Origin: Microthyrium microscopicum
Taxonomy: Eukaryota
DNA: 64,000 bases
Direction: 5' to 3'
Assembly (NCBI GenBank): GCA_010405405.1
Contig: MU004246.1
Span: 1 to 64,000 of the forward strand
This document shows positions 420 to 51,232 of this stretch, piece by piece. Position numbers and translations under genes: made by a program. The notes below the pieces were generated by a model. That model did no database searches. It saw only the letters and a list, made by a program, of their open reading frames with translations, and had not been told where the DNA came from. The number at the start of each line of letters is the position of its first letter. Positions within the stretch are counted from its first letter, which is position 1.

Positions 420-780
420 AGATAATATAAGTACATATTTATATTACGCTTTTTCTTCTTTAAGTAAAAGATACTAGTTAGTATATACTTACGTTATATT
501 TTTTTTTCTTTAAGTAAGAGATACTAGTTAGTACATACTTTTATTACGTAATTTTTTTATTAAAGTAGAGAAAGGAAATAAATACGTACTAAAGTTATAC
601 TCCTTTTTTTTTAAAAATAAAAGGTAGTAAGTATATACTTAAGCTATGCTTTTCCTTCCTTAAATATAAATATAATAAGTACGTACTTAAGCTACACTCT
701 TTTTTTCTTAAGTAAAAAAGGTAATAAGTACGTACTTAAGTTACGCTCTTTCTTCTTTAAGTAGAAATAATTATAATATA
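420..780 (+). repeat. Degenerate tandem array, ~49-50 bp unit, ~7 copies
   Basis: ATACTAGTTA recurs at 471 and 521; core TAAGTA(C/T)(G/A)TACTTAAG..(C/T)TTTCTTCTTTAAGTA recurs at ~50-bp spacing. Confidence 0.75.
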
Positions 781-2429: not shown

Positions 2430-2970
2430 AAGAAGAAACGTAGCTTAAGTACGTACTTATTATCTTTTCTATTTTAATAAGAAAGCACCTAATAAGAGTA
2501 GGTACTAACTAGCCTTTTTTACTTAAAAAAATAGAGCGTACCTTAAGTATATGCTTATTACTTTATCTATTTAAAGAAAAAGAAGTAGTAATAGGTATAT
2601 ACTTACTATCTTTTCTATTTAAAGAAGATAGAGTATATCTTAAGTACGTACTAACTTATATCTCTTACTTAAGAAGATAAAGCGTATTTTAAGTACGTAT
2701 TTACTACTTTATCTACTTAAAGAAGAAGGAGTATTAATAAGTATATACTTATTACCTTTTCTACTTAAAGAAGAGAGTATATAATATAAGTATATATTAA
2801 CTAGTATCTTCTAATAAAGAAGATAGTTTATATTTTAAGCTTATACTTATTACTTTATCTATTTAAAAAAGAAGAAGTATTAATAAGTATATACTAGCTA
2901 GTATCTCTTAATAAAGAAAATAGTTTATATCTTAAGTATATACTTATTATCTTTATAGTATATACTTAAC
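2430..2970 (-). repeat. Inverted copy of the ~50-bp tandem array, ~10 copies
   Basis: Units such as TTTACTTAAAAAAATAGAGCGTACCTTAAGTATATGCTTA (~2518) match the reverse complement of the 720-770 unit (TAAGTACGTACTTAAGTTACGCTCTTTCTTCTTTAAGTAGAAA). Confidence 0.7.
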
Positions 2971-5900: not shown

Positions 5901-6808
5901 TTATTTACTATTCTTAAAGCCTTTAAGTCCTTCTTCTTTATTATAAGCATAGGTTTAAAGTATACTAGCTATAGATTCTATAGTAGAGATACTATATAAA
6001 GAATACTTCTATTAGTAGTATATAGATAAGAAAAAAATATTATATATATTTAGTATTTAAAGACTTATATAGATTTAACATTATTACTACTTATAGTTAA
6101 CCTATACTAAGTAAAATATTCCTATATATTATATTAGTATAGTATATACTAGGTAGAAATATATAAATAGCTTTTAATTAGCTTTAGTTAAATTTAAATA
6201 TCTACTCTTCTTTATCTTTATTCTTAACTTTTATAGGTTTAGTTTTTAAGGATATAAATAATATAGGTAGAGTATATATAAATAATTAGTTATAAAGCCT
6301 AAGTTATAATAAGAGTATAGTTATATAGCAACTTAAGTATATACTAAAGTAATAATATAAAATTAATTAGATTAGTTATAAAGTTTAATATAGCTATACT
6401 ATTATAATTAAATTCTATATATTAAGACTAGTCTATAATAAGTACGTATTAACTATCTACTATAGTAATACTTATATTACGTAACGTATTAGTTTATATA
6501 CTTTTACGTAAAAGCTATATATATTACTTTTATATATATAATATATAGAGGTATAGATTATATAGAGATACTACGCTACTATATACTAAAGATAAGCTAC
6601 GTATAGGTCCTCATGTAGTAGAGATAGCTAATTTTTCTGGCGCGATTTTCCGAGGGTTAGCGGAACCACGTCGTCGGGGAAAGTGCATCTCAAAACAACG
6701 GAAAGTGGGGCAAGAGCAGCTCAAGCTTTGCGCGGCAGGCACAGCCGAAGCCGTCACCAACCAATTTACAGGGATCAAAACACCAAACTCTTGAGATCAA
6801 GTTGATCA

Positions 6809-29710: not shown

Positions 29711-32271
29711 ATGTCGTCGAGTAAATGGATGGGTACCTCCGTACCAGGTCCCAATCTTGCAGACAGGAGTGACCTCGACAACGATAACGCGCCGACAACT
29801 GAAACCTGCGATGTATGCCGCAAAATTGCTCATGCTATTGCTGGAAATGAGCCGAAGGACGCTCAGACAAGCTCATACGAGAAAATATGGTATCTGGGAC
29901 TTTGGCAAGGTTTTTCTGATAGGAAGCAGTGCCACGATTGTCAGAATATCGTTCAATTCTTCGGCTCTTGTGCAGATGACAAAAGGTCGTTCAGTCCAAC
30001 GTGTTCAATACGGCTTCGAGGGGGTTGGAGGGGTTGGAAACGACGGCCTCGAGGGGGTTGTGATACGTTTACTATAGAGGGAGTGGGAATGCCTTGAAAC
30101 TTGGAGGGATGTCTTGCTGACCATACTTAAAGTTTTGCAAATCTTTCCAAACCTTTGATACTATTAGTCAGATTTGCGGCTGCTACCAACAACTCCGCCT
30201 TGTGCCGGTTGAAAAGAATGGAACACAAGTATCGGAAAACGCGAGATGTCTTTCTCTGACATCGGAATTTATCAGCATACCTTTGCTCATCGGCTGGGCA
30301 CAACAGTGCCACGAAGAGCATGGAGGAGTATGCCATGATTTAACAGAGCGAAGTCGCATTTCTTTACCGTCTGATCTGATCTTGATCGATGTGAGGAAAT
30401 CATGTTTGGTACATGTTCCCACAGTCAGTTCAGAAAGATATGTTGCAATATCATACGTTTGTGAGTTCTCCTTTTGCTTATACTGTTCTCCCCGCATCTT
30501 CAATTTACTTCGATGCTACCAACACCCGCTGTGGTACCCAGGTCCTCCTGTATAAACTGGCACTGATTAGCAGAGGGCGCTCTGGCCCAACTTCCAAGAA
30601 AATCGTCCTTTTTAAAAGCCACAGGATGCAATCCCACACTAATCCAGTTTAGGGGGGAAGAAATCTGGGGATATCAGATTGACTATGAAAACACGGGATT
30701 TCCTCTTTACTGAAAACTCTCTAATGAGAATGAAAGAGCGCATACCAAGAACAATACAAGATGCGATGACCGTGGTGGCAGCAATGGAGCTCCAGTATCT
30801 ATGGGTCGATCGCTTATGCATCATTCAAGATCAAAAAGAAGGTTTGAATCAGCAGTTACATCAAATGGCATCGGTTTATGCGAATTCATACTTCACTATC
30901 GTCGCAGCAGATGGCCGAGATGCGGACCAAGGACTTACTGGTGTAAAGCCTCATGGTCGAAGTATCGCTTTCCAATTCAGCGGGGAAGTCAAGACGGTAG
31001 AAGACCCAGATTACATTCGGCGAACGGACGGATCAGTATGGAATACACGTGCATGGACTTTTCAAGAAAGTACTTTGTCATTAAAGCAAATGATCTTTAT
31101 TGGAAGCAGTGTCTACTGGAGATGCCAAAAGATGGACAAGGATGAGACCGGTGGGGATATGTTCAGACTCGGAGCAGACAATTCTAGTGACTATGGCCAG
31201 GGCCTGGGAGGAGCATGTCCTCCCTGGCCGAATCTGGAACGTTATTGTGATCTAGTTACTGGCTACACTGTTCGCAATCTCACGTTCGAAACCGACGCTC
31301 TTCGTGCCTTTTCGGCAATCACTACGGCGCTTAGTGGGTCGTTTCCTGGAGGATTTCTTTTTGGTCTGCCAGTGTTCTTGTTTGATATCGGACTGCTCTG
31401 GACCGGTGCCCCCGATCGTCTAGTGTTAGCTAAACGGCGGAAGTCCTTTCCAAGCTGGTCATGGTTAGGTTGGACCGGCAGGACTACATGGGATGTGAAA
31501 TATGAAGCCGGCTGGAGTCCGTTACATGTTGTATGGAGGCAAAGTCCATATCCAACTAATTTCAAACCACTCATAGACTGGCACGCAATTCGTTTGGATG
31601 GAATGCGAACGACAATAGACAACTCTTATCATTCGTACAAGATAGATTTGCGGGATCCTGATCTTTGCCTGCCAACTGGCTGGAGTCTGGCCAATTCGGG
31701 CTGCGACGAGAAAACACTGGTCGTTCAATCAGACCAGATACGTCCAAGATGGGATTACGACGCTAAAGGATACTACGAGCAGCAGTTTAACTTTCCCGTT
31801 CCACTGTTCCCGTCCCCAACAGATGACGAGTCTCATCTGTTTTCTGGCAAGCTTGAGTTCCAAGCTGAGACCTGTACCATCACCTGCTCCCGAGGTCACG
31901 ACTATGATGTCCATGGTCGCATATTTCTGGATCTTTGCGATGATAGTGGCCGTTGGATTGGGGCCATTGACACGAATGAAGTTATGAATGATGAGGAAAG
32001 GTCTGGAGCAAACTACTGCCAGCTAATCGGTTTATCTTACGGACATGTGCTGTTAGGCATTCCTCGAGTTCAGTATGATCACAGGTTGCAGAAGGACTTT
32101 CCCGAGGTGGAGATGTACGATCATCTAAAGACCCTGAAAGAGTACAATTTCTACAACGTGATGTGGATTGAATGGATCGATGGCGTAGCTTATCGAAAGG
32201 GGGTCGGTCGAGTGTGGGAGGAGGCTTGGAAGCTACAGAATCGCACGATGATAGACGTTGTACTTGGATGA
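29711..32271 (+). CDS. HET (heterokaryon incompatibility) domain protein; probable exons 29711-30082, 30133-30460, 30653-32271
   Basis: YVAISYV|WG after splicing, IPRTIQDAM, YLWVDRLCIIQD, QMASVYANSYFTIVAA, WNTRAWTFQE, FPSWSWLGW. The first intron donor (GTGGGA) is weak. Confidence 0.85.
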
Positions 32272-32480
32272 CTTGCGAACTTGATGGAGCTACAGGCTAT
32301 AAGGGCATCATATCCCTGATACTAGCAAACCAGGATGTTTACTGCTTCTTTGGGCATGAAGACAAGAACTGAAATTGAAAGTGTGTATATTTGAGATCAA
32401 AATGCAACGCTTCCTAGCCAAACCCAAAATCTATGCCATCCCATCCATCCCGGCTCATCTATCCCTCTCCCATATCGCCC

Positions 32481-33815
32481 CTATTTCTTCAAAGCCTTCT
32501 CAGGATCCTTATCAAAAGCTAAACACCACTTATCCCACTCCCGCGCCGCCTTCTTCATAGTCTGCCTCAAATCATCCTTAACCTCCTGAATCTCCCACTG
32601 TTCGTCCTCCCAGTTCCTCTCTTCTCCCTGCACACCACTCGGCGCCCAACCTAGTGCCTCCAACACTTCCGTTTCCGTCGGCGCTGGTCCTGAGGACTTG
32701 AACAGTCCGTAGTCTCGTTTCACGCACTCAGCGGTGAGGTACCGAGTCAGCACGTCGAGACGTGGTGAAGGTGCAAATGTGAGTTTTAGCTCAGATTCGT
32801 GGCCCGCGGTAGGAGAGGGCGAGTTCAAGCGCTTCGTAACGCTCCTCGCTGTCTTTGCACCACGGATGGAGCTATACGCCCAAACACCATCCATTTCAAG
32901 CAACCCGCCAAACGGCCAAACCGGCGTAGCCAGCAAATCGATCGCCGCAGAAACAGGAATGAGACCCGTAGCAAGCACAGCATCCCGATCAGCTTTACTC
33001 TTCGTTCTCAACATACTAGCCAAAAATTCCGCCCTAACCTCCTCCGCACTATGCCTCAAACTCGCCGGATGAACCAACACCAACTCCGTCAACCCCACTG
33101 TCGCTTTCGTCGTCTCCGCCTGATGTAAACCATCCTCATGATGTCTATCGCCCGCTGGATCCGGTGTGATGGGTCTAGGAGGAAGGCTTGGCGCATTTGG
33201 ATCCGTCTGCGCATGCGGATTGAGAGTACTTGCGGAGCCAGTTGCGTTTGCATTAACTTTCTTGTTGGACGACGGCGGTCCAGGGACGCGGTTGAGGAAG
33301 TCAAGAGAGGAACTTGTAGTCCAACCCACAGCTTTACTAATGCCCTTGGTAGCTCTTCCTTTGATACCCTGCCAACTCGCGACCTTTGCATCGCTTGTTT
33401 TGGCTTTTCTGACTTCTTCCTGCCACTTCCGCTGTACTTTGTGGAATTTCTCTTCCTTCTCGCCTTCTTTTGGCGCTTTGAGTGGTGGAGGGGGCGGCGT
33501 ATACATGAGAAATCTATCAGGAATGGTGTCGGCGCCTTTGATAGCGTGGATGCTGGGCTTCGGGAAGGGAACGAGGTAGGCGATTAGTTTGTGTGGATCG
33601 CGCGTGTAGTGGACTGGGGAGCTGATATCTTGATCGAAGGCGGCGAACTCGGCGGGCTTTTGGAGAGGCGGGGGGAAGTAGGTGTCGTCGTATGCTGGTG
33701 GTGGGCCTGAGCTTGCGATTGTGGTTTGTTGTTGATGTCGTGGTGGGAGCGGTGGTTGAATCTCATATTCTGCTTCTGGCGCTGGTTGAGCGCCGGTCAT
33801 TTTGATATCGGACAT
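32481..33815 (-). CDS. Hypothetical fungal protein (444 aa, Pro-rich N-terminus), intronless
   Basis: Long ATG-started ORF with protein-like composition; no family recognised. Confidence 0.75.
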   Translation of the reverse strand: MSDIKMTGAQPAPEAEYEIQPPLPPRHQQQTTIASSGPPPAYDDTYFPPPLQKPAEFAAFDQDISSPVHYTRDPHKLIAYLVPFPKPSIHAIKGADTIPDRFLMYTPPPPPLKAPKEGEKEEKFHKVQRKWQEEVRKAKTSDAKVASWQGIKGRATKGISKAVGWTTSSSLDFLNRVPGPPSSNKKVNANATGSASTLNPHAQTDPNAPSLPPRPITPDPAGDRHHEDGLHQAETTKATVGLTELVLVHPASLRHSAEEVRAEFLASMLRTKSKADRDAVLATGLIPVSAAIDLLATPVWPFGGLLEMDGVWAYSSIRGAKTARSVTKRLNSPSPTAGHESELKLTFAPSPRLDVLTRYLTAECVKRDYGLFKSSGPAPTETEVLEALGWAPSGVQGEERNWEDEQWEIQEVKDDLRQTMKKAAREWDKWCLAFDKDPEKALKK

Positions 33816-34516
33816 GCTTCGTCTCTAAAAACCAATCGTTTGTAAGTGGGAATGGTGAATTTGGCTGATTGTATTGTTGTATGATATTTCTCTGCCAAGT
33901 TTGGGTCGTTGGTGTTTTTATACTGGAAATGGGTGATGTCACCGACCCCTGTCAAGCGAAGCTATCCGCAGCACGCAGATCTCGTCTCCACGTCCTGATA
34001 GAGCTTCGCGTCCACCACTGCGCCCCAATCATCGCTTGCGAAATACACACGGAAGCCCATTGGAAAAAGAGCTTAAACGTCTGCCTGTTATTTCGCTAAG
34101 CTGCGGTTACGTTGTTGACGACGACTTCAAAAATAACATAGTCGGCTAGGCTTTTTGTGCTAATGCACTTTGAGGCGTGTAGACGAGAGAACCTCAATTG
34201 CGGTCGAAATCTAACTGGTGATTATCAGAGTGTGTCGGATCCGCAGTAAATGGCATAGTTAGGCATCAATATAGATCACTAGAATGGAGATTAGTCGAGC
34301 AAATTGAAGAGATCAGATGAGAAAGAAAATGCAAGTCCATTCCAAACAGGTTGTTGTACAGTAATTTAGCCCAAAACCCCGAAGTACCAAAGCCGAAGTG
34401 AGCTAGGCCCATCATTTGGTGGATGTGTGAGCTTTTCTTTTCTTCGCAACGGGGAAGACCAGATCAAAACGACCAGCCGGAGTCCAATTTTCCCAAAATC
34501 TCCTTTTCATGCTGAT

Positions 34517-35990
34517 TCAGATCTCATCGTCCATGTTGACATCGGCCTCGGCAGTTGTCGCAGCACCTTCAGTCGCGCCCTCACCACCACCTCCCCAGTA
34601 ATCGGCCATCTCCGCATCTAATTCCTCTGCCGTCTTGCGCGGTCGACCACCGACAAGCGCATGGCCTTCTGTGTCAGAGCGTTCGCGAGGCGCTGGCTGT
34701 CTCCGCTGGCCAGGGCGGCGAGTACCACGGTCATTGCGACGAGGTGATCGACGTCTGCTATCGTTGCGAGGAGCACCTCCATTCTGCCCAGGCACATATC
34801 GATCGATATTATCGGGAGCAGCTCGCTGTACGTTGCTGCGTCGCGGATTGTCGTCGTCCGAGTCGGCACCTACGCGATTACGGCGCTCATTGGCAGCAAT
34901 ACGCTCGAGAATGCTTGGTGGTTGCCGTTCGGCGGTGCGGCGAGCTTCAGGCAGGTTTGAGACTAAACTGATGCGGATGGGTTGCCCATTTGCATTGGCT
35001 CCGTCAAATTCTTCGATTGCTGCGCGAGCGTAGCGGGCGTCTGGCAGAACTACAAAGGCGATGCCTCTGCTGCGATCTTGTTTGTCGTATACCAAGCTAA
35101 CCGAGGTCACTGGTCCAATCCGTTCAAAGAGTTCCTGTGGCTGGTTAGATTTGTTGGGAACTCGAGAGTATGGCGCATACCCTAATATCGTCTTCCGTCA
35201 GATCATAATGAATGTTCTCGACTTTCAGCTTTGAGCCAATCTGGGGCCTGTTTTTGCGTTAGGTCCGAACGCGATTTGGTGGAGTGACTCTACGTACGAA
35301 GCGTAAGGATCGCGGCGAGTTATTCGCACAGGATGCGTTTCGCGATGGTGCGGTCGTCCTACATGCTAATCAGATCTGTGAATCATATCATTGTATCAGG
35401 TGCCGTACCAGCTTCTTCATCGTCATCGAATCGATCGTGAACCCAATCGCTGAACTGGTGTTAGCTCCATAATAATCCAGCCGAGGAAAGAGAAAGTTGT
35501 CTTGTATTACCGGTCCATGTTTCTGTTATCTTCGCGGCGATAACTCTATTCATCAGTCGACCAGGTCAGCGTCATTCACTTGTTATATAAGGCGGATTAG
35601 TCTCCGAGTGCCGGCGCAGTAAGCAGGCAACCATGGCTTCGACATTGACGTTTGACGTTGGAGGATTGTCAGGTTGCGTTTGTTCTGCCGTAAGGAGAGG
35701 TATGGTTGCGCATGCGTAAAGACATCGGAAAAAGTCGAGAATTATAGAGGAGGATATGAGGGGTGAGGAAAAAGCACCTGTTGGGAGATGTCAGCGGTTG
35801 TAGCGTTTAACAAGTAAGCTCGCGTACCTTTTTGATACCGTCACGGGGTGGTCGACGGTCACGAGCTTGGCCGCGAGAGTTGTTCCGGTCACGATGCTGT
35901 TTCTCATGTCAATTACTAGAAATCGAATACAAGTAGTGTATTACGAACCTGCTGTCGTTCAGCGATGACATCGTCTAGACTGCGATCCAT
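34517..35990 (-). CDS. ALYREF/Yra1/THOC4-family RRM mRNA-export adaptor; 7 exons (35990-35949, 35896-35828, 35545-35511, 35449-35409, 35358-35298, 35247-35181, 35134-34517)
   Basis: N-box MDRSLDDVIAER, DWVHDRF, RRM (LKVENIHYDLTEDDIR..DRSRGIAFV..FDGANANGQPIRISL), C-box RKTAEELDAEMADYW. All six introns are GT-AG and keep the frame. Confidence 0.9.
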
Positions 35991-37799
35991 GGTGATAAAT
36001 CGGGTGGTGAGAGGTCTGCGAAGACGAAGAAAGCGAAGCTAGCGTAGTAGGTTTAGGAAGAGTTCAAGATGATGGCTTTTATGAACGAGAAGTAGGCAAT
36101 TTAAGCTGAGAGATCGATGGTGTTGATGAAGAAATGATGGAAGAGCGCAGCAAATGCGATGCTCAGTTGGTGGTGTTGGTTAATGGTTTGCATCAGCGGT
36201 CTGGACTAGCACCAATTCGGCTAAGCGCCTTCAACCCCTGTTTGCTCTGAAAAGACCTCGATTTTGCTTCACAGCTGCTTATTTTTTTGTGTTCTTTCAC
36301 TGCCAATGATTCTATTCATTCACATTATCGCCTGGTGCGCCTTACATGAACAGAAATTAGAGGCTCATCAGTATGCGAGCTAGTGGCCTCTAGTATCGTA
36401 CTGCTTGTTACCTGTCAAGACACGCTCATTTCCTGAGCGGATAGGCGCAGTAGTTACGAGCAGTTCTCACCACTGTTATTGGGCTGGCCGATGGAAATGC
36501 CAGCCCTACCGAAAACTTCTGTTAAAACGCATTATGCTAGCGTGCCTATTTGGATTAGATAAGGCTTTTTGGCTTGCGCTAGAAGGGGTAAAAGGGGTTA
36601 GGAAGGGTATTAATAAGAATAATTCTCTTCTAAATATAGATTACTTACTATATTAACTTATTTATTAATCTTTATAAAAGCAAATAGAGATATAAAAAAG
36701 GCTTCTAGGAAACTCTTTTTAAGCTAATAACCTTAAGTTTTTAAAGCCTCTATTATAATTATTAGCCTATATAACGTCTTTATTTAGAGAATATATTATA
36801 ATATAAGATAGAATTTTAAAAAGGAGAAAGATTAAAAGAATAAAGAAAAATAGTTACTTTAAATAGTAAATTATAAGTACTTAATCTTTTTTTATTCTCT
36901 AATAAGAACTTTAATTACTTATTAAAATAGTAAATCTTTCTACCTTATTTTCTTAAAAGATATAAGTAAAGAAGTTTTAGCTTCTAATAAGAATACCTAC
37001 TATAAAAGTCTTTTAAAATACTTTAGATTATTACTAATATCTAAGTTATTTATATTTTAAGATATAAAAAACTCTAGCTATAGTAGCTATAAATATAATT
37101 AGTAGTAAAACTCCTATACTAGTAAAGAGAATAGAGAAAAAAGGATATTAATAAAGTATAAAAGAGCAAATCTTTATACTTAACTAGTAACTTACTTAGT
37201 AAATTTAGGTTTCTAATAAATACCTTTTAGCTAAGTAAGGACTAGGTCTTAGTTACTAAATAGATAAAGATATAGAATAACTTTATTAATCTACTAATTT
37301 TATAGAGATAGCTAGATATTTTAAAGTATTTTTATTAACTATTTAACGCTAGTATTACTAATAAATATTTTTAAATTAGGTTCTAAATAGAGATAAACGC
37401 GTTAATTAGACTAAGCAAAAGTAGTTTTCTACTTTAGAAAAGGCTATCTATAATATATTTATTTAGAAAATAACTAAAGACTATAAAGTTTCTATTAACT
37501 AGTTTAAATATAAAATTTAATAATAATAGGCTATTCTTTATACTAATTAAATTAGTAATACCTCCTTTTTAGTAAGGCTAAACCTCTTAGCTAACTAGTA
37601 CTAGCTATTCTTTTAATAATATAATATTATATAGCATAAAGTAATTTATATTACTTAGAAAAAGTCTCCTAATTAAAGGAACTAAGTAGTATCCTTTTAT
37701 TCTTTTATTAGATAAGTTTAGCATAGTATTATTACTTTATAAAAAGTTTATTTAAATTTACCTTAACTAAAAGATATTTTATTATATAGTTTAATACTA

Positions 37800-39080
37800 G
37801 ATTACTTTAAGTATAATATTAATAAAATACTTATAAGCTATAAGTATCTTACTAGCTAGGTTTATACTAAAAAAAAAGTATAAATAGTAACCTAAACTAC
37901 TACTTAGAGTAGCTAGAAAAAGAGATAATTTATAATTATACTATATATCTTTACTAATAGTATATAATAAGTTAAGCCTTTAATTATCTTTAAAGAAGAG
38001 CTAATAAATAGAACTAGCTAAATTTTTAATAAAGAAGATAAAAACTATTTAAATAAAGTTATTATTAAGTTTAATCTAACTACTTAGGAAAATAAGAAAT
38101 TAATTCTAAAGTAGCTAAATAAGTAATACTTACTAGTTATTAAAGATTATATTTATTAATAGCTATAACGCTATAAAGAAGTAAAAGATTCTTCTTTATA
38201 GCAAAAGGCTATTTATAATACCTTTCCTAAGTTTAAAACTCTATTTAATAAATATAATACTTAGATTTAAAATACTTCTTAATTAGAAGATTACCTTACT
38301 ATAATTAGTATATTTACTATTCTAGCTTATTACTTACTAGAATCTTTCTTAGTTATAGACTATACTTCTTTTTATAAAGGTCTTAGAGTTAAGTAATAGT
38401 ATTAATTTTATTAGACTATTATTTATATTATTCTTCTTAGAATAACCTCCTTATTATAACCTCTAAATATTAGCTATAATAAGCCTTTTAAGGCTAAAGT
38501 TATAAACCTTATAAAAGAATAAGCCTATAATAATAATCTAAATATAGATATTACTAACTAAGAAGTTAGACTTTACTATATCCTAATTATCTTTATTATT
38601 ATTAAAGTAGATAAGGTATTATATATAGATAAAAAAAAGATAATTCTTTAGTCTTTTAAATATACTAGTATTTTAATTCTAGCTAATAGCTTAGATAATC
38701 TTATATAACTAAGTATTAAAGGTATTATACCTAGGGAGCTAAACCTCTTAGACTAAAGAACTATTCCTCCTTATTATTACTAAGATAAGGAACCTAAGTA
38801 GAATCCTTTTATACTTTATAGTAATTAACTAGCTAAAGACTTCTATCTAAAAGATAATAATAATAAGGATACTCTAATAGATTTAAGAGTATTAATTCTC
38901 TTTACTAACTAGTAAGCATTATTCTTAGATAATACTAAAGAATTTATCTCTTATAAAAATAATACCTTAATAGATCTAATTTCTTTTAATAATAACAAGC
39001 TAGTTAATAAGCCTATTAATAAGCCTATTAATAAGCTTATTAAAGAGCTTATTAAAGAGCTTATTAATAAGCCTAATACT
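37800..39080 (+). pseudogene. RIP-destroyed DDE_1 (pogo/Fot1-like) transposase remnant; full ORF probably extends further both ways
   Basis: Four segments in one frame. 37812 YNINKIL (de-RIP ~N.DETP); 37929 FIIILYIFTNSI**VKPLIIFKE (~TV.LCIFADG...KPL.IFKG); 38343 SFLVIDYTSFYK (~LVMD..SFH); 38427 IILLRITSLL*PLNISYNKPFK (~IPPG.TSLLQPLD...NKPFK). De-RIP readings are inferred by reversing C>T/G>A changes. Confidence 0.8.
39006..39077 (+). repeat. 12-bp tandem repeat x6 (AATAAGCCTATT/AAAGAGCTTATT), in frame with the transposase
   Basis: Six consecutive 12-mers starting at 39006; de-RIP suggests D/E-E-P-V/I tetrapeptides. Confidence 0.75.
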
Positions 39081-39420
39081 AAACTATTACTAAATTTCTA
39101 GTAGTTATTTACTAATACTAATATTAACCTTAACTTATTTAATAATCTTTAAGAACTTACCTTTAAGATAGCTATAGCTAAATCTAGTCTACCTATTACT
39201 ATTAAAAAAAAGAAATAGAAGAAATAACTAATAAAACGTAAAGTATTAGTAAAATATAAAGCACTAGCAAAAGAGTTTACTACTAAACTAGCTATAAAAA
39301 GGGCTAAAAAGGCTTCTAAAAAATTAATATCTATATATATATATAGGAATAGCTAATCTTAACCTTTTATAATTCTTAATAACGATACTACTACTTTGTC
39401 TTAAACTAGTCTTTAGGCTC

Positions 39421-39525
39421 CTCTCTAGTTAGGTCCTCTTTAGCTAAGTTCTCTCTAGCTAAGTTCTCTCTAGCTAGCTTCTCTCTAGCTAGCTCCTCTC
39501 TAACTAGCTCCTCTTTAATTAGCTC
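39421..39525. repeat. 15-bp tandem repeat x7 (CTCTCTAGCTAGCTC consensus)
   Basis: Seven consecutive 15-mers differing mainly by transitions. Confidence 0.8.
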
Positions 39526-41684
39526 TTTGCTAGATAAATATACCTTTAGTAGTCCTCTCTTAACTACCTCTTTATTAATTAGTTAACTCTTAATTAAATA
39601 TAGCTTTACCTCTAGTTCTAAATAGCTTCTAACCCTTATCTTCCTATATTCTATAGAGTTATATACTAATAGTTAGCTCCTAATTCTAGCTAATAATATA
39701 TTACTCTCTATTATATTAATAGCCTACTAATAACTAGAATTATACTATAAGTAATAGATTACCTAGAAGATATTATCCTATCTTATTTTATCTATAGAGC
39801 TTAAACTAGTTATCTTAAGAAATATACGTAACTAGTTATTAAGCGCCTATTTAATTTACTAATAATCTCTTTTCTAAACCTAACTATAGTAGATAGTATA
39901 ATTATTATTAATAGAACTAGTTAAATAAATTATAATCCTATATTTAATCCTTATATACTTATTAGTAGTTACTTACTATAGTAGAAAGTATTTATTATTA
40001 ATACAAAATATACGTAAAAGAGTATAATTATAGGTTATATCTAGCTAATTTAATTTTATATAGATTTTTAAGAGCTAAGAATACTTATAAATAATTTCAT
40101 ATCTACCTTACTTACTTCTTATATTTAATACTATTAAATCTACGTTCCTATTAATTAAGTTAGTAAAGAATTAATAATAGAGAAATTAATAAACGTTAAT
40201 AAATTTAGAGCTAAGATTAGTTCTAAAAAGAGCTAAGGAAGGATACCTTAGAAAACCTAGAAAGAGAGAGAAAAAGAGTCTTAAGTAGAATTATCTCATA
40301 AAGCTAATTTTAAAAGATATTCTATATAAATTATAAATCTAGTCTAAAACGTAAAGCATCTAAAGTTAGTAAACTAAAGGAAATCTATTATATAATTATA
40401 GGTACTTAGTAATTAATAAAAGAGCTAAAGAACTATATAAGTTTAAACTAATAATTAGTCTAGAAATTCACCTTAGTATAAAACATTCATACTAGGATTT
40501 AATAACTTTTATATTTACTAGCGTTAAGATTAATATTTTGCTATTCTTATCTTTTCTCTTTTACTAAGAATATAAATAATATAAAATACTAATATTTTTA
40601 CTTACCCCTTTAAAAACCTTAATATAAGCCTATAATTCTTAGTAATAGTTTATATAAAGCAACGTAAAATATAAAGAAGCTCTTCTTAGTATAATATATA
40701 AAGTACTACTATCTACTAGTTCTTATAATTACTACTTTATATATTTATATTCTTATTCTAAGTTTTATAATTATAACGTTTAGTTACTAAGGAATATATA
40801 ATATTTAAATACTTAATATATTATATACGCTTAGATAGACTTATAAATATAAAAAGTATTTACTAGCTTAAAATATTTAATTATATTCTAACGTCTAAAT
40901 TAAATAAAAAGCCTTTCTTAATTCTTTCTATCTATAAATATAAGTCCTTAGTATAAGTATAATACTAAAGTATAAACTACCTAACTATTATACGTCTATA
41001 AAAGAATTATACTTTAAACTAAAACCTTAAAACTAATATTAACTTAATAAAGACTAATAAATCTATTATAAGTATAATACTAATTAAAGTATAGACTTTT
41101 AACTTTTTATATTAGTATAATAATAAGTCTATATAAAGCTTTTTAGTATATTACTTTACTTACGTTTTACTTTTAGATTAATATATTCTATATTACTACT
41201 AAACTAATATTATAGGCAGTTTCTAAATACTTAAATAGCCTTAAAAAGATAATAAGTAAGACTAAACTAATCCTAGTTATTACTTTATAAGTATCTAAAG
41301 AAATTAAGCTAAAAGTAGCTACTAATTTTAAATTATATTAAAATATATTCTAAAACTAGTATTTATAACTATATAGCTATAAATATAGAATTATAGCTAC
41401 TAAATTTACTAGAAATACTAACTTTAGTACTTACGTTATAGTTCTTCTATCTTAAACTTATATTATAAATAAGTAAGAACTAGTAATTTCTATAGCTTTC
41501 CTTTCTAATAACTAAGGCTACTAATATTAGTACTATTACTAATCCTTTTTATCTATAACGTTTATTATAGAGTACTAGCAATTAATAAATTCCTACTACT
41601 TTTATCTATAGTAATTATTTACTAGGTATTTAGAAACTAAATAATAAAAAGAAAAAAATAAACTAATATTTAATTCTTTAGAAA

Positions 41685-41903
41685 ATATACTACCCTTATA
41701 TTTTATACTTAGAAACTAAGTAAAAATAAACCCTTATAAAATCTCTAGATATATTGCCCCTATATTTTATACTTAGAAACTAAGTAAAAATAAATCCTTA
41801 TAAAATTTCTAGATATACTATCCCTATATTTTATACTTAGAAACTAAGTAAAAATAAATTCTTATAAAATTTCTAGATATACTACCTTTATATTTTATAC
41901 TTA
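41685..41903. repeat. 64-bp tandem repeat, ~3.4 copies
   Basis: TTTTATACTTA recurs at 41701, 41765, 41829 and 41893. Confidence 0.9.
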
Positions 41904-42649
41904 AGTAGACTTAATATAAATAGAAAGTACTAAAATATAATTTTATTTTATCTTTTAAGATAAATAAAACATAGCTAATATAGAGTATTTATAATACTTA
42001 TAAGTAGAACTAAACTACTTTTTTTTATAGTAAAAGTAAACTATTTTTTCCTTAAGTAGTTTTACTACTTACTTAAATAGATTTAACTATTAAAAACTAA
42101 TATATTACCTAATAATCTTATAAAGAAAGTAGAATAAAACATAGTTCTAATATTAATACTAAGCTAACTAATAAAAGTTAACTAATAAGAAAATAACTTT
42201 TAAGAAAAAGTATTTCTTATAAAAATATAAATATTTATTTCTAAGCTACCCTAAAAGAATAAACTATAAAATATATTATACTCTTTACTAAAGACCCTAA
42301 AAGGGTTTTAGAGATAATCTAGTAGCTAATATTATTAAGCTAGCTAGATAGTAGATTCTTATCTACTTTTTATATAAAGCTTTATAATTATACTAACTAT
42401 AAGCTATATATAAAATCTAACTTAATAATAAACTATCCTAAACTTAAGTCTAGTTTATAGTAACTAGTCTAGCTAACGCTAAATTTAGTAGAAATATATC
42501 TAATTTCTAAAAAATTAAGACTTAGTAAATATATCTCTAAACTATAGCTAAGAATAGAATTTACTTAAGAATTAACTAGAATTACTATAAGAATTAGTAG
42601 GTATAATTACTAATCTTATAGAATCCTAGCTAAATTCTTATCTTTTTTA

Positions 42650-44070
42650 TAAAGTAGCTAAAAATACAATCTTCTAAAGCCCTTATAGCTTAGAGATTAG
42701 CTATAGTAAAATACTAAAATATGCTCCTACTATTATACATTCTACTATAAACTAGCTTAGGACTTAAGAGCCTTAAGTCTATAAAGCTAGACTAATCTAG
42801 GACTAGCTTTAAATCTAGCCCTTTATATCTAAAGGGCTAGATTATCCTATAGTAGCTACTTAAGCTATTTAAATCTATAGTATTTAATACGTAATATTAA
42901 GATCTAGGAATTACTAGATCTTAATATTGTAATTACGTATCGTTATATGCCCTATTATATATTAGATTACGTTATCTAACCCTTTATATTTTTAAAGAGC
43001 TAGATTATCTTATAGTAGCTAAAAATAACGCATTTTTAAATAATAGCTATTTTAGCTACTAATAGCTAATATTAGCTACTAGTAACTAATATTATAGCTA
43101 GTATTAGCCTAAAATCCCCTTTTTAAAAAAGCTAAAAATACGATCCCCTAAAGCCCTTATAGCTTAGGGATTAGCTATAGCGAAATACTAAAATATACCC
43201 CTACTACTATACATTCTACTATAAAGTAACTTAGGACTTAAGAGCCTTAAGTCTATAGAGCTAGACTAATCTAGGACTAGCTTTAAATCTAGCCCTTTAC
43301 ATCTAAAGGGCTAGATTATTCCATAGCAGCTACTTAAGCTATTTAAATCTATAGTATTTAATACGTAATATTAAGATCTAGGAATTACTAGATCTTAATA
43401 TTTAGATCACGTGCCGTTATATGTCCTATTATGTAAGATTACGTACTAGATTACGTAATCTAGCCCTTTATATCTAAAGAGCTAGATTATCCTATAGTAG
43501 CTACTTAAGCTATTTAAATCCATAGTATTTAATATATAGTATTAAGATCTAGGAATTACTAGATCTTAATATTTAGATTATATGTCGTCACGTGCCCTGT
43601 TACGTAATATTACGTGCTAGATTATATAATCTAGCCCTTTAGATTTAAAGGGCTAGATTATTCTATAGTAGCTACTTAAGCTATTTAAATCTATAGTATT
43701 CAATACGCAACATTAAGATCTAGGAATTACTAGATCTTAATATTATAATCATGTGCCGTCACGTGCCCTGTCACGTGCTAGATCACGTTATCTAACCCTT
43801 TATATTTTTAAAGAGCTAGATTATCTTACAGTAGCTAAAAATAACGCATTTTTAGATAGTAGCTATTTTAGCTACTAATAGCTAATATTAGCTATTAGTA
43901 GCTAATATTATAACTAATTTTAGTAGGCGCCCCTAATCCTCTTTATTAAAAAGCTAAAAATACTATTTTTTGAAGCCCTTATAGCTTAGGGATTAGCTAT
44001 AGCAAAGTACTAAAATGTGCCCCTACTACTATATATTCTACCATAAACTAGCTTAGGAGTTAAGCTATTA
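42650..44070. repeat. Hierarchical subterminal array of palindromic units (~171-bp subunits within ~474-bp units)
   Basis: Hairpin A ATCTAGCCCTTTA-N4-TAAAGGGCTAGAT at 42813, 42974, 43287, 43458, 43629, 43790; hairpin B AATATTAAGATCTAG-GAATTA-CTAGATCTTAATATT at 42893, 43367, 43538, 43709; unit head GCTAAAAATAC at 42657, 43131, 43953. Confidence 0.9.
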
Positions 44071-46346
44071 TCTCTATATACCTTACTACTATACTATTAT
44101 TCCTTTTAATTATACTCTATAGCTATTATTCCTATATTCTACTATAGTAACTATTTATCCCTTTTAATTACGCCTAATCGTTATCCTTTTTAATTATACT
44201 ATACTATTATCCCTTTTAATTACGCTCTATAGCTATCCCTTTTAATTATACTCTATAACTATTCCTTTAGTAGAGTACGCTATAGGCATCTTTATAGGTA
44301 CCTTTATAGGGGCCCCTATAGTATGCCCTACTAAAGGGCCTATAGGTACCCCTATAGCGTGCTCTACTAAAAGGCCTTAAAATAAGCCCCTATAGGGGCA
44401 TGCTATAGCTACTAATAGGGGGTACAAAAGGGACAAATAATCACTAATAGGGGCAGCGCCTGCTAAATTTAGTAGGACCATGACCTAAATAGGCACGCTA
44501 GCATAATGCGTTTCAACAGAAGTTTTCGGTATAAGCTAAGTCAAGGAATACGATACATCACTACATACAATCTGCATGTCTTCAAAGACTGCCGATCATA
44601 TTGGACTTGTTTGAGACTCGAACATTCAAAATTCATTGTCAAACATGGAGATGCTTTAGCAAGGCTGACATTTGACAACTTTATTGGGGTTAATTGCCGC
44701 TCCCAAGAACCGAGCCCCTGGGACAACGGTGTACAGATTCGGGATTCACTGTGACAAGATAGCTGGCCTCTTGGCCTAGAGTACTTTATCAATAGCGATG
44801 ACTAAGGGCGAAGACAAATTTAGCTATGGTGTTGAGAATGGATAACTTTCCATCCTAATCCTCGCATTTTAAGAATTAACATTTCACTTATTGTACCAAG
44901 GATCACCATGTATTCTAAACTTGTAGATGAGTTGATATTATGATTGAGCAACCATGCTGATCATCCAGTCATCAATTGGGCTGAGTGTAGTTTGTCTTAA
45001 TGGCAGCCTGAACTATTCCAGCTTGACAGGGAAAGGTTATGACGAAGTTGAGGATGACAAGTGGAGCATGCATATAAGCCGGATGATATGAAGAGTCAAA
45101 GACGCATGTCTGACTGGAAAGATATGATACTATTAACCTTCTCAATCTGCAGACATATCAAAGTTGCTGCAAGACAAGGCAATGAATCAGTAGTTGGGTT
45201 GTTCAAGGGAAGCGGACCTTGCAATCGATCATTGGCATCAAGACGGAATCGCCGTTAACTCCTCGGGAAGCCGGGGTATTTCAGACTACTGACATGTTGC
45301 TGCAGACGCGGAGTACCTGGTTATAGACGTGAATCAATGTTGAGGTAACACCGTAGGGAACGCCGATATTGATAAAAAGTTGACAATTGATGTACCGACA
45401 AGGCAGAGAAGTGACCGATGCATCGTAAGAGTAATCTTGGCATACATACAGGCTGTTCTCAATGAAGTGATGAGAAGACGCCGAGATCTAGGCTTGCATT
45501 AATACTTGAGGCTAGGTAAAATGGGTACATGTTATGCTTGTTGGCAATTGGCAAGATCGCAGGCAACTGGTTCAAGGGATGCATATGGACCAATTCAAGG
45601 TAAGCGTAAAGCAGAAAAGAAGATGAGAAGTATGTTAGGTGTGGCCAGTCTTGTACCTTTATTGTACAGAATAATATTCTATCAATTTCAAAGCTCGGAG
45701 TAGTAAGCACCCGTCCCTCAGCCGCCCCGAGTCCCGACCACCTGGGAGTTTGATCTTTGTCAGAGATAACTTGTGGATTATCTATGATCCAACAGCTGCG
45801 AGCCTGGCGAGCCTGGATAGTTGGGAACGATCTTGATTGAGATTATACCGGATTTGAGATTATACCGGATTTGATGATTGTAGGCTGATCTTGATCTGTA
45901 TTTCTATACTCTGCAACTGGATTGTAGAGCGGGCATTGGGCAAGAGCAATTGGCTGTGACTGCCCAGACCAGCCTACAAGCCCATCACAGTACGGTAGCG
46001 ATCGCTCCTGCCAACATCTCCATCCAGACCCATCACGCATCTCCTCAAACCCCAACCTCACTCTCTCCACATCGCCTCCAAAACACCATCAACATCTAAT
46101 TATCCCCAGTCGACATTCGACATTCTCCTACCTCGCGCGCATCCGTTCCTTCCATGCCGCCGACGCAACTCATGCTCCCATGAGGCCGATGCGCTGCTAT
46201 TGCTCTACAGCCTACCTCTAAGAGCCTTCCTGCCCCCACCGACCACGTCGTTTGCTTGACCGTCTCACCATCAACTGTCTCTCCCGCCATTACCACGACC
46301 GCCGTCTCAAACATCTCCTCGAGTGCTTCTTCACTCTCTTCAAACC

Positions 46347-49300
46347 ATGGCGCACTACCAGAACGGTGGATATCCTCATTACCCTAATACCAATGCTCCG
46401 CTCCCGCCGCTACCTCCCCAGCCGAACCAGCAAAGACAAGATGGTTACGACCCGAATACGCCGCCACCTCTTTCATACCCCAACGGAGTCCAATATTCTG
46501 ACGCAAACTATGGAGCGCCTGGCAGACATGGTAGTTTAGCTTCGCGACAGGAGTCGGAATTATTCATGGGTGGTAGTGCACCTCCTCCTCCACCGCAAAG
46601 ATATGGCAGCACAGCTGGATCATCATACAATCCTGCTGCTTATGCTACTCAACCATCTCCAACTTCTTATCAACCCACAGGTTCTCCTCAAATAGACCGT
46701 CGGCCGAGCGCACCTGGTCATCAACCGTATAATCCAGCCGCTTATGCGCCCACCAATTCACCAGGCTATGGTTATTCTCCTGTATACCCAACTGGCCAAT
46801 CGCCGCTACACATGCCCTCTCCACCTTTGCATCAATCTCCCTCCACATCACGACCACTTTCGATGCATAGTGCAAGACCTACTGTTTCGACTGGATATTC
46901 TTCTCAATACGGCCCAACAGGAGCCCCACCACTGCCTGCCATACCAAGCGCTGGTGATTCTCCAAGTGCTGATTGGGGTAGGATTCCAGGGAATTTAGGC
47001 CGATATGGTACTCGAAGATATCCTCAGTCTTCCAATCAAGCTCCACTCCCTTCTCCTGGTCAAAATCATTCTAGAAACAATTCATCGGGCCTTGCGCAGT
47101 CTTTTTCGCCCACCTCTTCCGAACTGTCTCCTGGTATCCCACCGCCACCTCCTCCACATCGAGCCGGCTCAATCGCACGATCAGATTCACAGCGACCTTT
47201 ACCTCCGCCACCACCCGGCGAAGCGCTAGAGAGTCCTGGATATTTCTCGCCTAATAGTGGTGGAGGATATGATTCCAGTAGGCAGCAGGAATTAGAAAAT
47301 CAGATATCGTCACTCGTTGGCGTCGGTAGCAGTGGGGAGAGTGATGACGAGCTTGCTCTTGCAGGACTGCAGGCAATGGAAGAGGCTGATAAGCAAGAGC
47401 AAGAAGAAGCAGCAAGAAGAGCAAGCGGCCAAAGTACATTATTCGCCAACGTGGGCGTCGGGAGAAATAGCTCCGTACAAACAACAAACACATATGTTGA
47501 TAGCGACAGCGAAGGACCACAAGTAGATCTCTCGATGTATGGAGGCGGCTGGGGCGTACCACCAGGGGGCATGTCTTACGGCGGCGACCCCAATGCACTC
47601 GCTATCGATCGGAACAACTCCTTGCATGAGCGGCACAACAGCCAGACTGTCTCGTCTTCCGGATCATTTCGACATGCTGCGGAGTCCGAAGATAAACCTC
47701 ACTCCTACGCCCAGGTTGACGCTTTTGGCACTGGAGGTTTAACGGACCCCAGCGCGCCTCGGAGAATGAGTTTCGACGAAGGAGATGAGCTTGATCTAAT
47801 TGCCGATGCGCCAGAGCAGTTTCCAGAGATGTTTTATCACCCAGGAATCACGAACCGGCCGTTACCATCGCTGCCTCAAGGCAGTCAGTCCTCACCATAC
47901 ATTCCCTATCCGACTGATGCTAGGTACGACCAAATACCGTACCCAGGGACCTCGCCATATCCTATCAATCAAGCGCATCTTCTACAATCTCCTGGGCCTG
48001 GTCGCCACTTGTCGTTGGTCAACCACTCGTCGAGTCCACAAGCCATCACTCCTATCCGCGCAAAAACTGACGCCGAAGAACGGCGGAAAGCTGCCATGCG
48101 GCATTCTTCATATATCGATAGTACTGGTAACACAACCGCAGGCGCAAGTCAAGTCACCATCGATCTACCGGAGCTTACCAAACGGTATAACCCCGACAAG
48201 TTGACAGCAAGGGATTTTGATCGATGCTACGAACCGTGGGCACTTAGTTCACTTGCAGGATGGCTCAGACAAATAGCTGGAGACGAACAGGATTTGACCA
48301 GTAAATCACTATCCAAAGGCCTGCTCAACCTCATCGCCTATAAAGCTCCAACGCTGGAAATTGCCGATGGAGAAGCTTTGGCCTCCGGAATCATTGATAA
48401 GCTGCTGGAAGAGGGCACTCTGGTTCAGGAAGAAGAATGGTTACTATTCAAGGACGTTCCTGCATCCGGTGTCATCTATCAGCTCACAGGACGAGGATGT
48501 TATTCTTCGAAACTACACGACTACAATAGCCCTTATCGCTGTTACTCAGATCACTGCCAGCGTACAGAGCAGAAATATGATCTCCTCGATGGCGATGTCG
48601 TAGTGGAGGAGGACTGGACCAAGTTTTACAAATTCACCGTTAAGGACGTTGAAAAGTTTGACAGAAAAGAAGTCGCCCGCCAGAACGTTCTTCACGAATT
48701 GGTTACCAAGGAGGATAATTATGTTCGCGAACTCGGTGTAATAATCAGTGTGTTCCGGGATCCACTAGCTCGACAGAATCCGCCTATAATAGCACCCAAG
48801 AAATTGCCTGGATTTATAAAAGACGTCTTTAGTAAGGTCGAGGCAGTCAAAAAGGCCGATGAAGAATATTTGCTTCCACAGCTAAAGTACCGCCAGCAAA
48901 AGCAAGGGCCCTGGATTCAAGGCTTTAGTGACATCCTTCGCAACTGGATACGCAAAGCTCGCACGTCCTATGTTGACTATGCATCCGCGTATTCCCTGGC
49001 TGTTCATCGGATTCGGCACGAGTTGTCCAAGAACATGCTATTCGGGAAGTTTATCGAGGAAACGATACTCAACAAGCAGACTAAGAGATTGCCATGGACT
49101 CATTTCATCAAACTTCCTTTAAGCAGATTGCAACAAGTCATTCTCCTCCTGGAAACGGCTTTGAAGGCATCTATTAAGGATAATGACGAGAAGCGAAACC
49201 TACAGGCGGCCATTGAGGAAATCAAGGAAGTCACTCGCGAATGCGATGCGCGTGTAGGCGAAGAAAGCAAGAAGGTGGAACTGAGAGTCTTATCAACCAG

Positions 49301-51232
49301 ACTCAAGTTGCGACCTGAGATGCAACAAATTGATCTTCACTTGGATCATCTGGGTCGAGAACTGGTTTTTCAAGGAGACCTTTTACGTACCACTGGCACA
49401 GGTATTGGAGGTTTGACCAAATTCACCAACTCGCATGCAATTCTCTTTGATCATTATCTTGTTTTGGCCAAGATGTCTACTCAAAAGACACCAGAAGGAG
49501 TGATACGATCGGATCAATATGATGTATCTCGAGCTGTAAGTTGTTGTCTTACTATTACGCGTGTTATATACTGACTACTTCCAGCCTATACCGATGGATC
49601 TACTAGTCCTGGAGAGCGATAATGATGATCCAGTCATAAGAGGAGCGTATGGTGTCGCAAGAGTTGACCGTCTACAGAAGACTACTAGCAATCAACCCGG
49701 TGCCTTGCAGCATAGTCGCACCAGCACGTCTCTCAACTCCATGGGCTCTAGTCAATCAGCTCCACCACTAATCAACACAAACGCCATTGATGGGGCCAAG
49801 GACGAGAAAATTCTGTACCCTTTCAAAGTAAGACATCTTGGTAAAGATACATATACTCTATACGCGAATTCATCACAGGGTCGAGATGAGTGGTGTACAA
49901 AAATCATTGAGGCCAAGACGAAGCACGCGCGAGCACTTTTCGTTCAAAATGCAGAGCCTTTCAAGATGAAGGTCATAGCCGATACCGCATTTGCTTATGA
50001 GGCAGTGCCGACCGGACAAACCAGCATCATCATTAAAGGCACACCACTCGATCGAGCTATTCGGGAAGTGGAGGCATTATACGTAAATTCTGGGCGACCC
50101 AGCCCAATTTGCCGAGCCAAGGTTCATGCTGCTACCTCATTTCGAGATCCCAGCGGGAGAGCCATGGTTGCCATTGGCACTGATTATGGTGTATATGTCT
50201 CGGAAGAGAACAACCCAAGAGCTTGGCATAAGGTTTGTTCTATGACATTTTTGTCTCATCACAAGGCTAACCCTTGATAGGTTATCGCTAACAACAAGGT
50301 GACTCAAGTTACAGTACTGGAGGATTTCTCCATCTTCCTTATCCTAGCCGAGAAATCCGTCATTGCCTATCACCTTGACGTTGTCTGCCCACCAAACGGC
50401 GTTGGAACCGCCAACGATTCCTCTCGACGGGCACCCCAAAAGCTCTCTGGTAGCCGTGACGTAGGATTCATGGCCGTTGGTAAGATGAAGGATAGAACAC
50501 TTGTCTTTTACAAGAAGAAGGATGTGTCATCCTCCACTTTCAAGGTAATAACTGTATGTACCCCACGCCACGGATATGTAACTGACGGCGTTTGCTAATA
50601 AGGTTCTCGAGCCCGTCATCCAACGCTCCACCGAGAAGAAGTCGCGCTTCGCACCTCTTCGATCCGGCAAAACCGAATTCTTCCGCGACTATGACGACTT
50701 TTACATCCCGACTGCTTGTACGGGCATGAACATCTTCCACTCTTCCATCTCTATCCACACGACGAAGACGTTTGAGGTTCTAAACCTCGATCGTAAACTC
50801 CCTGTTACCGTCCCCGTCGACATCGAACAGCCACATACAAAACAAATCGCCGACCGCATTAGTGGCCAGGAACCGCGCGGCATGTTCCGTCTCTCCGAAC
50901 AAGAATTCCTCCTCTGCTATCAGACGTGTGCTGTATATATCAACAAACACGGCGATATCTCTCGCTCTGCCATTCTCGAATTTGTCGGCACCGCACACTC
51001 TGCTGCTCTGTACGGCCCCTACGTTCTACTCTTCGATAGCGACTTTGTCGAGATTAGAAATGCGGAGAATGGCCGTTTAAGGCAAGTCATTGCTGGCCGC
51101 GATGTCAAGTGTCTGGATGATGGCAGTGCAGGCGGTGCGAAGAGGACAGTTAAGATGAGTATGCAGCATCCTGAGATTGAAAAGAATCAGATTGTCGTCG
51201 AGTTGGTTCTTAATGAGGGCCTACGGGAGTAG
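46347..51232 (+). CDS. Rho guanine-nucleotide exchange factor, DH-PH-CNH architecture (Rom2/Tus1/Rgf3 family); exons 46347-49535, 49585-50232, 50281-50544, 50603-51232
   Basis: Pro-rich N-terminus; DH domain RQNVLHELVTKEDNYVREL..PLSRLQQVILLLE; PH domain LFDHYLVLAK..PIPMDLL; CNH domain VTQVTVLEDFSIFLILA..EFLLCY..FVEIRN. Three GT-AG introns keep the frame. Confidence 0.92.

Follow-up and report, generated by a model that had tools for sequence, protein, structure and literature searches.

We analyzed a window of 64,000 nucleotides from the fungus Microthyrium microscopicum (contig MU004246.1, positions 1 to 64,000), in which an AT-rich block forms one unit of 8025 bp (36507-44531). The block is bounded by 45-nt inverted arms, TA included, that are 98% complementary. 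Between them lie a decayed plus-strand open reading frame (ORF1) for a putative transposase, a small convergent frame on the minus strand (ORF2), and a long stretch of middle DNA and repeats that includes a palindrome module (Table 1). An earlier note on this DNA had proposed a giant pogo-type transposon carrying cargo genes. Our results suggest that the block is likely a single cut-and-paste transposon of the pogo superfamily, inactivated by repeat-induced point mutation (RIP), which belongs to a fungal clade of two-gene elements and was enlarged by duplication and inter-family recombination. The two-gene clade, taken alone, we also consider likely.

The two arms (36507-36551 and 44487-44531) differ by a single A/G, at a position where the majority of other copies have G; the 43-bp terminal inverted repeats (TIRs) with one G/A difference and flanking TA that the earlier note described are thus confirmed. 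A RIP signature is a hallmark of filamentous ascomycetes. Inside the element, the GC content was 0.23, TpA/ApT was 1.68 and (CpA+TpG)/(ApC+GpT) was 0.14, while the same three indices were 0.50/0.66/1.21 and 0.48/0.68/1.42 in the 3-kb flanks. The switch in composition coincides with the 250-bp bins that contain the TIRs, and the RIP damage stops there, in agreement with the note's view that the TIRs bracket the RIP block.

Table 1. Features of the 8025-bp element (positions in the window) and the evidence for each.
Feature	Position	Strand	Evidence
Left TA, putative target-site duplication	36507..36508	.	TA at both ends of 13/13 inspected short copies and of the C2 long copy
Left TIR, 43 bp, starts CCG	36509..36551	+	19 pairs found genome-wide (0-1 mismatch)
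ORF1, putative RIP-killed pogo-type transposase (start not fixed)	37002..39350	+	cross-family protein matches, motifs, period-3
ORF1, helix-turn-helix (HTH) region	~37245-37557	+	match to host protein with weak HTH_Tnp_Tc5
ORF1, D/D/D positions (DD35D)	~37821, 38358, 38466	+	motif alignment
12-bp tandem repeat in the ORF1 frame, low-complexity C-terminal tail	39004..39093	+	tandem-repeat scan
ORF1, basic tail	to ~39323	+	
15-bp tandem repeat that separates the two conserved coding parts; in the ORF2 frame it reads as acidic/basic	39414..39525	.	tandem-repeat scan
ORF2 (convergent with the transposase; start and stop not fixed), conserved core of ~130 codons	39706..40092	-	cross-family protein matches; intact relative P0007
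Middle segment, seen in the C9 copy and both copies of family A only	40150..41650	.	genome search, coding test
Tandem repeat of 64 bp, present 3.4 times here and in a different number in the C9 copy	41685..41903	.	tandem-repeat scan
Palindrome module, common to 8/8 long copies and three TIR families	42001..44063	.	genome search, comparison of copies, fold test
Subterminal 13/26-bp and 36-bp repeat tracts	44087..44377	.	tandem-repeat scan, comparison with short copies
Right TIR, 43 bp	44487..44529	-	inverted-repeat match to left TIR
Right TA, putative target-site duplication	44530..44531	.	as left TA

Copies elsewhere in the genome support the unity of the block. A second copy of the same family (family A) at C2:3410621-3418284 is 7664 bp long and has the same TIRs and TA flanks. 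It is 91% identical to the window copy and colinear with it (87-94% per 500-bp bin; 556 transitions and 43 transversions), the difference in length lying in the array region. With 0-1 mismatch, the TIR pattern was found 38 times, and these matches make up 19 pairs: 2 long copies and 17 MITEs (miniature transposable elements with inverted repeats) of 146-352 bp. The 13 MITEs that were inspected are all TA-flanked, and the 10 MITEs of 306-352 bp are internal deletions of the long element in which 140-240 bp remain on the left and 80-110 bp on the right. From these many TA-flanked copies we infer that TA is the duplicated target site. The earlier note had named two signs that would speak against a single large element, namely 2-3-kb copies with the same TIRs and nested elements with their own termini; no 2-3-kb copy was among the 19 pairs, and neither termini nor a target-site duplication (TSD) was seen at the edges of the palindrome module. 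Its reading of the whole block as one pogo-type element is upheld by the colinear C2 copy, the shared TIRs and the DD35D spacing described below.

The element also proved to be a member of a multi-copy group, as the note had supposed: eight long copies fall under three TIR types (A, B and C). Families B and C have TIRs of their own that likewise start with TA-CCG. Family C consists of one long copy (C9; 8474 bp, of which 1.05 kb is an insertion) and family B of five long copies of 6.9-7.3 kb, two of which are enlarged by insertions; the net length of the B and C copies is 6.9-7.4 kb. In addition, a protein search found seven 3.2-kb relatives, which make up families D, E and F. TIRs of the TA-CCG families are 31-43 bp long, starting with CCGAA in family A and with CCGTA in families D and E. 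Families B and C also have MITEs of their own: MITEs with the C-type TIR (24 pairs, 23 of ~150 bp and one of ~310 bp; e.g. C1:2401042-2401192) accompany the one long family-C copy, and family B has ~4 short pairs of ~235 bp. We also noted a further TA-CCG relative (C10:1327645-1329666, L165) that is 69% like family D over 2.1 kb and lies inside a larger AT-rich block.

The four ordered transposase motifs that the earlier note had placed in one plus-strand frame were recovered there: a first-D motif at 37812-37832, the next motif at 37971-37994, the second D at 38358 and the third-D position at 38466. The second and third D are 35 residues apart, and this spacing is kept in the 9 rows of the alignment that cover that part. 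A D is present at each of the three catalytic positions in some natural copy; the window copy has N, D and N, and G-to-A changes would give N at the first and third positions. Purine period-3 power was 15.5 across 37246-39406, and blastp between families A and B over the first 5.3 kb matched ORF1 on the plus strand at 27-33%. The HTH region matched a host protein with a score of 73 (shuffle maximum 47), and the HTH_Tnp_Tc5 match of that protein, at 21.5 bits, is just below the 22.2 cut-off. Of the profiles that the note had suggested, DDE_1 was found in 3 of 16 aligned ORF1 pieces, all from 3.2-kb relatives of families D and E (best E 0.0019), but not in the window copy. ORF1 gave no direct Pfam HTH match, HTH_Tnp_Tc5 included, and no Pfam family, including the BrkDBD motif, was detectable in its RIP-damaged N-terminus. 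Judging by the order and spacing of its motifs, ORF1 is very probably a transposase of the pogo superfamily.

Two side observations concern ORF1-like frames. In a family-B copy (L069), 49 nt at ~1530-1578 from the left end look like an intron, with GT..AG borders and a CTAAC branch motif; this stretch would account for a +1 frame shift in family-B ORF1, whereas family A stays in one frame there. Elsewhere in the genome (C17:221013-221573; L089:1255-2682, minus), a stop-free frame of 475 codons has a weak HTH_Tnp_Tc5, a Q/P-rich N-terminus and an acidic tail, and is 27% like the N-terminus of the family-B transposase. No DDE match was found in this frame, which looks like a domesticated host gene of the CENP-B type.

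Besides ORF1, the comparison of families A and B over the first 5.3 kb gave one further matching segment, on the minus strand (38%). This segment, ORF2, has cross-family protein matches of 30-44% on that strand, and it also occurs in the 3.2-kb families D, E and F, close to their right TIR; it is conserved in all six TA-CCG families examined. We weighed the possibility that ORF2 is no separate gene, being either conserved DNA that does not code or the antisense shadow of a C-terminal transposase exon on the plus strand. One plus frame does share its wobble positions with the ORF2 frame, and the intron-like shift in family B makes splicing plausible in the clade. Nevertheless, the minus frame outscored the plus frame in 29 of 31 non-independent cross-family pairs, plus being higher in the other 2, while the ORF1 control gave plus in 31 of 31. 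Furthermore, the protein match persists despite 26% transversions between families A and B, and its gaps keep the frame.

An intact relative also bears on this alternative. A profile of 15 natural ORF2 copies was searched against 1.8 billion proteins and gave 6 matches, two of which (P0002 and P0003) were kept as short intact relatives. Two others, P0001 and P0004, were repeat-protein noise on inspection. The cluster of one intact relative contains P0007, a metagenomic protein that is open for 139 residues in the ORF2 frame. It matched each of the 9 copies tested at scores of 72-138, while the shuffle maxima were 37-46. An automatic gene call with a low Atlas recognition score, P0007 leaves some room for the antisense or non-coding alternative; on balance, we hold that alternative to be improbable. 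ORF2 is probably a real gene, to judge from its conserved frame. Since it is found in all six families, the 3.2-kb relatives included, it would be a core second gene of the clade and not cargo of the long forms.

ORF2 belongs to no known family among the libraries tried. No family was found in Pfam, PHROGs or NCBIfam (matches at E 0.11, to P0009 in Pfam, and at E 0.062 in NCBIfam were taken as chance), and there was no usable match in PDB sequences, the ESM Atlas, phage or plasmid records, or longer proteins. No locus for genes of the P0007 type was found in metagenome, viral or prokaryote contigs. Two AlphaFold models of ORF2 had a mean confidence (pLDDT) of 33.5 and 35.1, too poor for a fold search, and searches with these models gave no E < 0.001 and no Z > 3.6. 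By eye, ORF2 had a likeness to what we took to be the pattern of HIRAN (PF08797). This likeness found no support in weak tests: there was no Pfam match, and hhalign gave a probability of 0.1-0.2 against 1, 2 and 6 HIRAN sequences, with shallow profiles.

The extra ~5 kb beyond the transposase is made up of ORF2, 1.5 kb of middle DNA and ~2.5 kb of repeats. Tandem units of 12, 15, 64, 171 and 26 bp, a 474-bp duplication and hairpins are present, and internal direct duplications total 1846 bp of the window copy. The arrays that the earlier note described are therefore real, but the 12-bp repeat that it took for a coding remnant lies in the tail of the transposase frame. It also proposed that the element may represent large cargo-carrying DDE transposons; on such a reading, the extra DNA would once have been captured host or accessory genes, since made unreadable by RIP. 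A size of 7-8 kb in eight copies would fit such capture. So would two stretches that have no assignment, one of ~1.5 kb in family A and another about as long in family B, for which the coding test had low power. However, Pfam matched no frame in either the window copy or the least-RIPped copy of family B, bar one match at E 0.14, within the limits that RIP damage sets on detection. A single-copy host source of the middle segment was not found in the genome either, the best outside match reaching 55.4 bits against a shuffle maximum of 54.5, and families A and B share no protein match in the middle region. The sole extra ORF is the one that the 3.2-kb relatives also have, and much of the length is internal duplication and repeat module. 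We therefore do not follow the note on this point, and regard captured cargo as quite unlikely.

The palindrome module is ~2 kb long. It has a short-repeat start and a unique 0.5 kb, followed by units of 474 bp and 162-171 bp with long palindromes and clustered TCACGT/CACGTG. In the least-RIPped copy, 9 of 9 CACGTG sites fall within the 1.3-kb array part of the module. Hairpin folding gave z scores of -11.6 and -13.6, and at the latter none of 100 shuffles was as stable. Rfam contained no family above threshold, only 4 sub-threshold miRNA-like hairpin matches.

RIP makes no transversions, hence transversions can be used to date the parts of an element. Between families A and B, they amount to 33% in ORF1 and 26% in ORF2, but only 5% in the module; between A and C, the values are 8% in ORF1, 0-1% in ORF2 and 2% in the module. 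Across the long families, the module shows 2-6% transversions, as against 8-33% for the transposases. Likewise, the C9 copy resembles family A at 64-78% in its left 3 kb, and at ~90% in the greater share of the right part. A module so much less diverged than the transposases would have been swapped between lineages.

The same difference in divergence would also suit a composite, in which an ordinary 3-kb pogo element received an independent non-autonomous repeat, for example a Helitron- or foldback-like one, either separately in each family or once with later spread; the module has hairpins typical of such repeats. Nevertheless, the genome search found the module only in long elements and in one 1.4-kb contig, with no free copy. 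It sits at an identical position and in the same orientation in three families. Its edges grade into repeat tracts, with neither sharp termini nor a TSD seen, and a weaker similarity of 69-75% extends beyond its left edge. The lack of a 2-3-kb element among the 19 pairs with the A TIR also argues against an inserted repeat, and a composite seems to us a poor explanation. We instead infer that the module was exchanged by recombination between co-resident families and not by nesting, given that, apart from one 1.4-kb contig, it was found only inside the long elements and showed no termini or TSD.

True nested insertions, with TG..CA ends and 5-bp TSDs, do occur in the C9 and C19 copies. The C9 insertion (C9:1883662-1884713, L062) is 1.05 kb long with 214-bp direct repeats, and its interior escaped RIP (GC ~50%); it looks like a TRIM-type (terminal-repeat retrotransposon in miniature) element. 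Two family-B copies also carry insertions: one of 7.6 kb with ends of the long-terminal-repeat type (C19:74275-81855), and one of ~2.9 kb (C6:2407542-2410480).

How the element arose may be pictured as follows. The transposase would have bound the TIRs, excised the whole 8 kb and inserted it at TA, as inferred from pogo biology. In the layout of the clade, the left end would hold the transposase, followed by a small convergent ORF2, which adjoins the right TIR in the 3.2-kb relatives and would be transcribed from the right part toward the transposase. The 7-8-kb families may then have grown by 4-5 kb added upstream of ORF2, through tandem duplication and through recombination between co-resident families that swapped the module (A, B and C) and the whole right 5 kb (A and C). 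The module might be cis-acting non-coding DNA rather than a passive passenger. ORF2 could tentatively be an accessory nucleic-acid-binding protein that aids transposition or expression, although we would sooner bet against this role than for it. A bolder version of the two-gene clade holds that ORF2 founds a new small family of DNA-binding proteins, and that the palindrome/CACGTG array is an exchangeable cis-acting cassette bound by ORF2 or by a host factor. Such a cassette might, for example, keep the element expressed or mobile under silencing, and would have spread between families with unrelated TIRs because it is useful. This version, bold in that it ties ORF2 to the array in function, is a long shot.

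Several points weigh against a RIP-inactivated pogo element in a two-gene clade. Pfam contained no family for the six frames of the window or for the ORF1 pieces of the window copy, and neither a search of PDB sequences nor a word-based homolog search with alignment gave a database homolog of ORF1; the pogo placement therefore rests on motifs. The 31 pairs of the strand test were drawn from 9 copies in 5 groups. Period-3 power of ORF2 was weak (3.1-3.3 in family A and 0.7-2.6 in other families), and the middle segment had no coding signal (0.3) in a weak test whose host-gene controls reached only 3.6 and 4.5. P0007 is known as a protein alone, without its DNA context. Lastly, all evidence on the element comes from one genome (37 Mb), in which the repeat-search counts are lower bounds.

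The insertion is intergenic, between divergent genes for an RRM protein and a RhoGEF protein. The left neighbor (34517-35949, minus) encodes an RRM_1 protein and has several introns, whose joints were seen in sequencing run X5; the right neighbor (46260-49574, plus) encodes a RhoGEF with a WH_RGF3 domain. A gene with a HET domain lies at 30643-32271. An empty site was sought over 32000-49000 in runs X2 (possibly DNA of the source), X5 (spliced, RNA-like) and X6 (low depth). No skip from TSD to TSD was seen among the 15 of 20 joints listed, which speaks neither for nor against the insertion. In run X5, depth was ~470-530 on the flanking genes and zero in most bins of the element. At right ends, a few contigs had a depth of 2-4; these were not used as evidence of expression. 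A contig of run X2 has a loose end at window position 44500, where the right subterminal region passes into a TIR of the C type whose inner part differs; this suggests further TIR variants on the same right end. A second RIP block, with a GC content of 0.10-0.22, occupies positions 1-6500 of the window, near the end of the contig. It has tandem arrays of 49, 97, 110 and 152 bp in an inverted arrangement and, among the matches listed, none to the 8-kb element.

We next set the element beside known systems. Pogo elements in the published survey are 1.2-5.2 kb long with ORFs that encode the transposase (PMC7386202). Members of the superfamily have TIRs with TA (or TAA/TAAA) TSDs, a DDD triad in DDE_1 with a spacing of DD29-59D, and a DNA-binding domain of the HTH_Tnp_Tc5/CENP-B type at the N-terminus. 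TIRs with TA were found in the window copy, the other long copies and all inspected MITEs, and DD35D across natural copies falls within the reported spacing. At 8025 and 7664 bp, family A lies far above the reported size range, which supports the note's view of an unusually large element. Passer elements are described as 1.6-4.0 kb long with one ORF and TIRs mostly <30 bp, in animals and stramenopiles (PMC7386202; PMC9976928; PMC7325037); the main text of the source paper makes no mention of fungi, and published primers for Passer TIRs start with TA-CCGTA (PMC9976928 Table S2). According to these descriptions, our element shares with Passer/TC2 the DD35D spacing, the TA TSD, a putative HTH_Tnp_Tc5-like region before the catalytic domain and a TIR that starts with CCG; the primer start is that of families D and E, while family A has CCGAA. 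It differs in its fungal host, TIRs of 31-43 bp, a second convergent ORF and lengths of up to 7-8 kb. The style of the motif round the third D also looks Passer-like.

For Fot elements, the survey gives a TAA TSD in most cases (341/385), TA in FotC and FotD, and TIRs of 40-60 bp (PMC7386202); Trem elements are 1.85-2.33 kb long (PMC2836289). A fungal host, DD35D, 40-60-bp TIRs and, for FotC/FotD, the TA TSD are shared with Fot and Fot-like elements. The TSD is mostly TAA there, however, and the descriptions compared mention neither a convergent non-transposase ORF nor a palindrome module. The earlier note had compared the element with pogo/Fot1; in its TIR ends, the likeness to Passer/Tc2 is no smaller than that to Fot1. 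The start of the TIR fits Passer, while TIR length and fungal host fit Fot.

Starships are tyrosine-recombinase elements of tens to hundreds of kb with host-type genes. Our element resembles them as large mobile DNA of filamentous ascomycetes, but TIRs, a TA TSD and a DDD enzyme set it apart, and the analysis found no host gene within it. VANDAL elements belong to the Mutator-like superfamily, and in an anti-silencing system of the VANC type an accessory protein binds repeat motifs of the element and lifts silencing. Two ciliate ITm-group elements have extra ORFs: one in TBE has no known function, and one in Tec lies on the opposite strand (PMC7325037); they differ in DD34E transposases, three ORFs and ciliate hosts, and are likened here by description only. 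In Arabidopsis, VANDAL/VANC is a DNA transposon that has an accessory gene and also tandem-repeat non-coding DNA, in which related families differ (PMC5735166). This is an analogy only, and an imperfect fit to the published account: ORF2 is also in 3.2-kb relatives that have no module, and the module crosses families whose ORF2 differs. In the literature covered, no fungal pogo element with a second convergent gene was found; Repbase, most subscription journals, and figures and some supplements lay outside that scope and may list such elements, and related families may already be catalogued there.

The finding does not reveal a new gene-carrying vehicle of the Starship kind. It does show that AT blocks erased by RIP can be read by comparing family with family, and in the swapped palindrome module it offers a clear example of non-coding DNA that transposon lineages have recently exchanged. 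Surveyed pogo elements of 1.2-5.2 kb encode only a transposase in the accounts compared; by contrast, a second, convergent gene kept across six diverged families would point to an orphan protein family tied to transposon biology.

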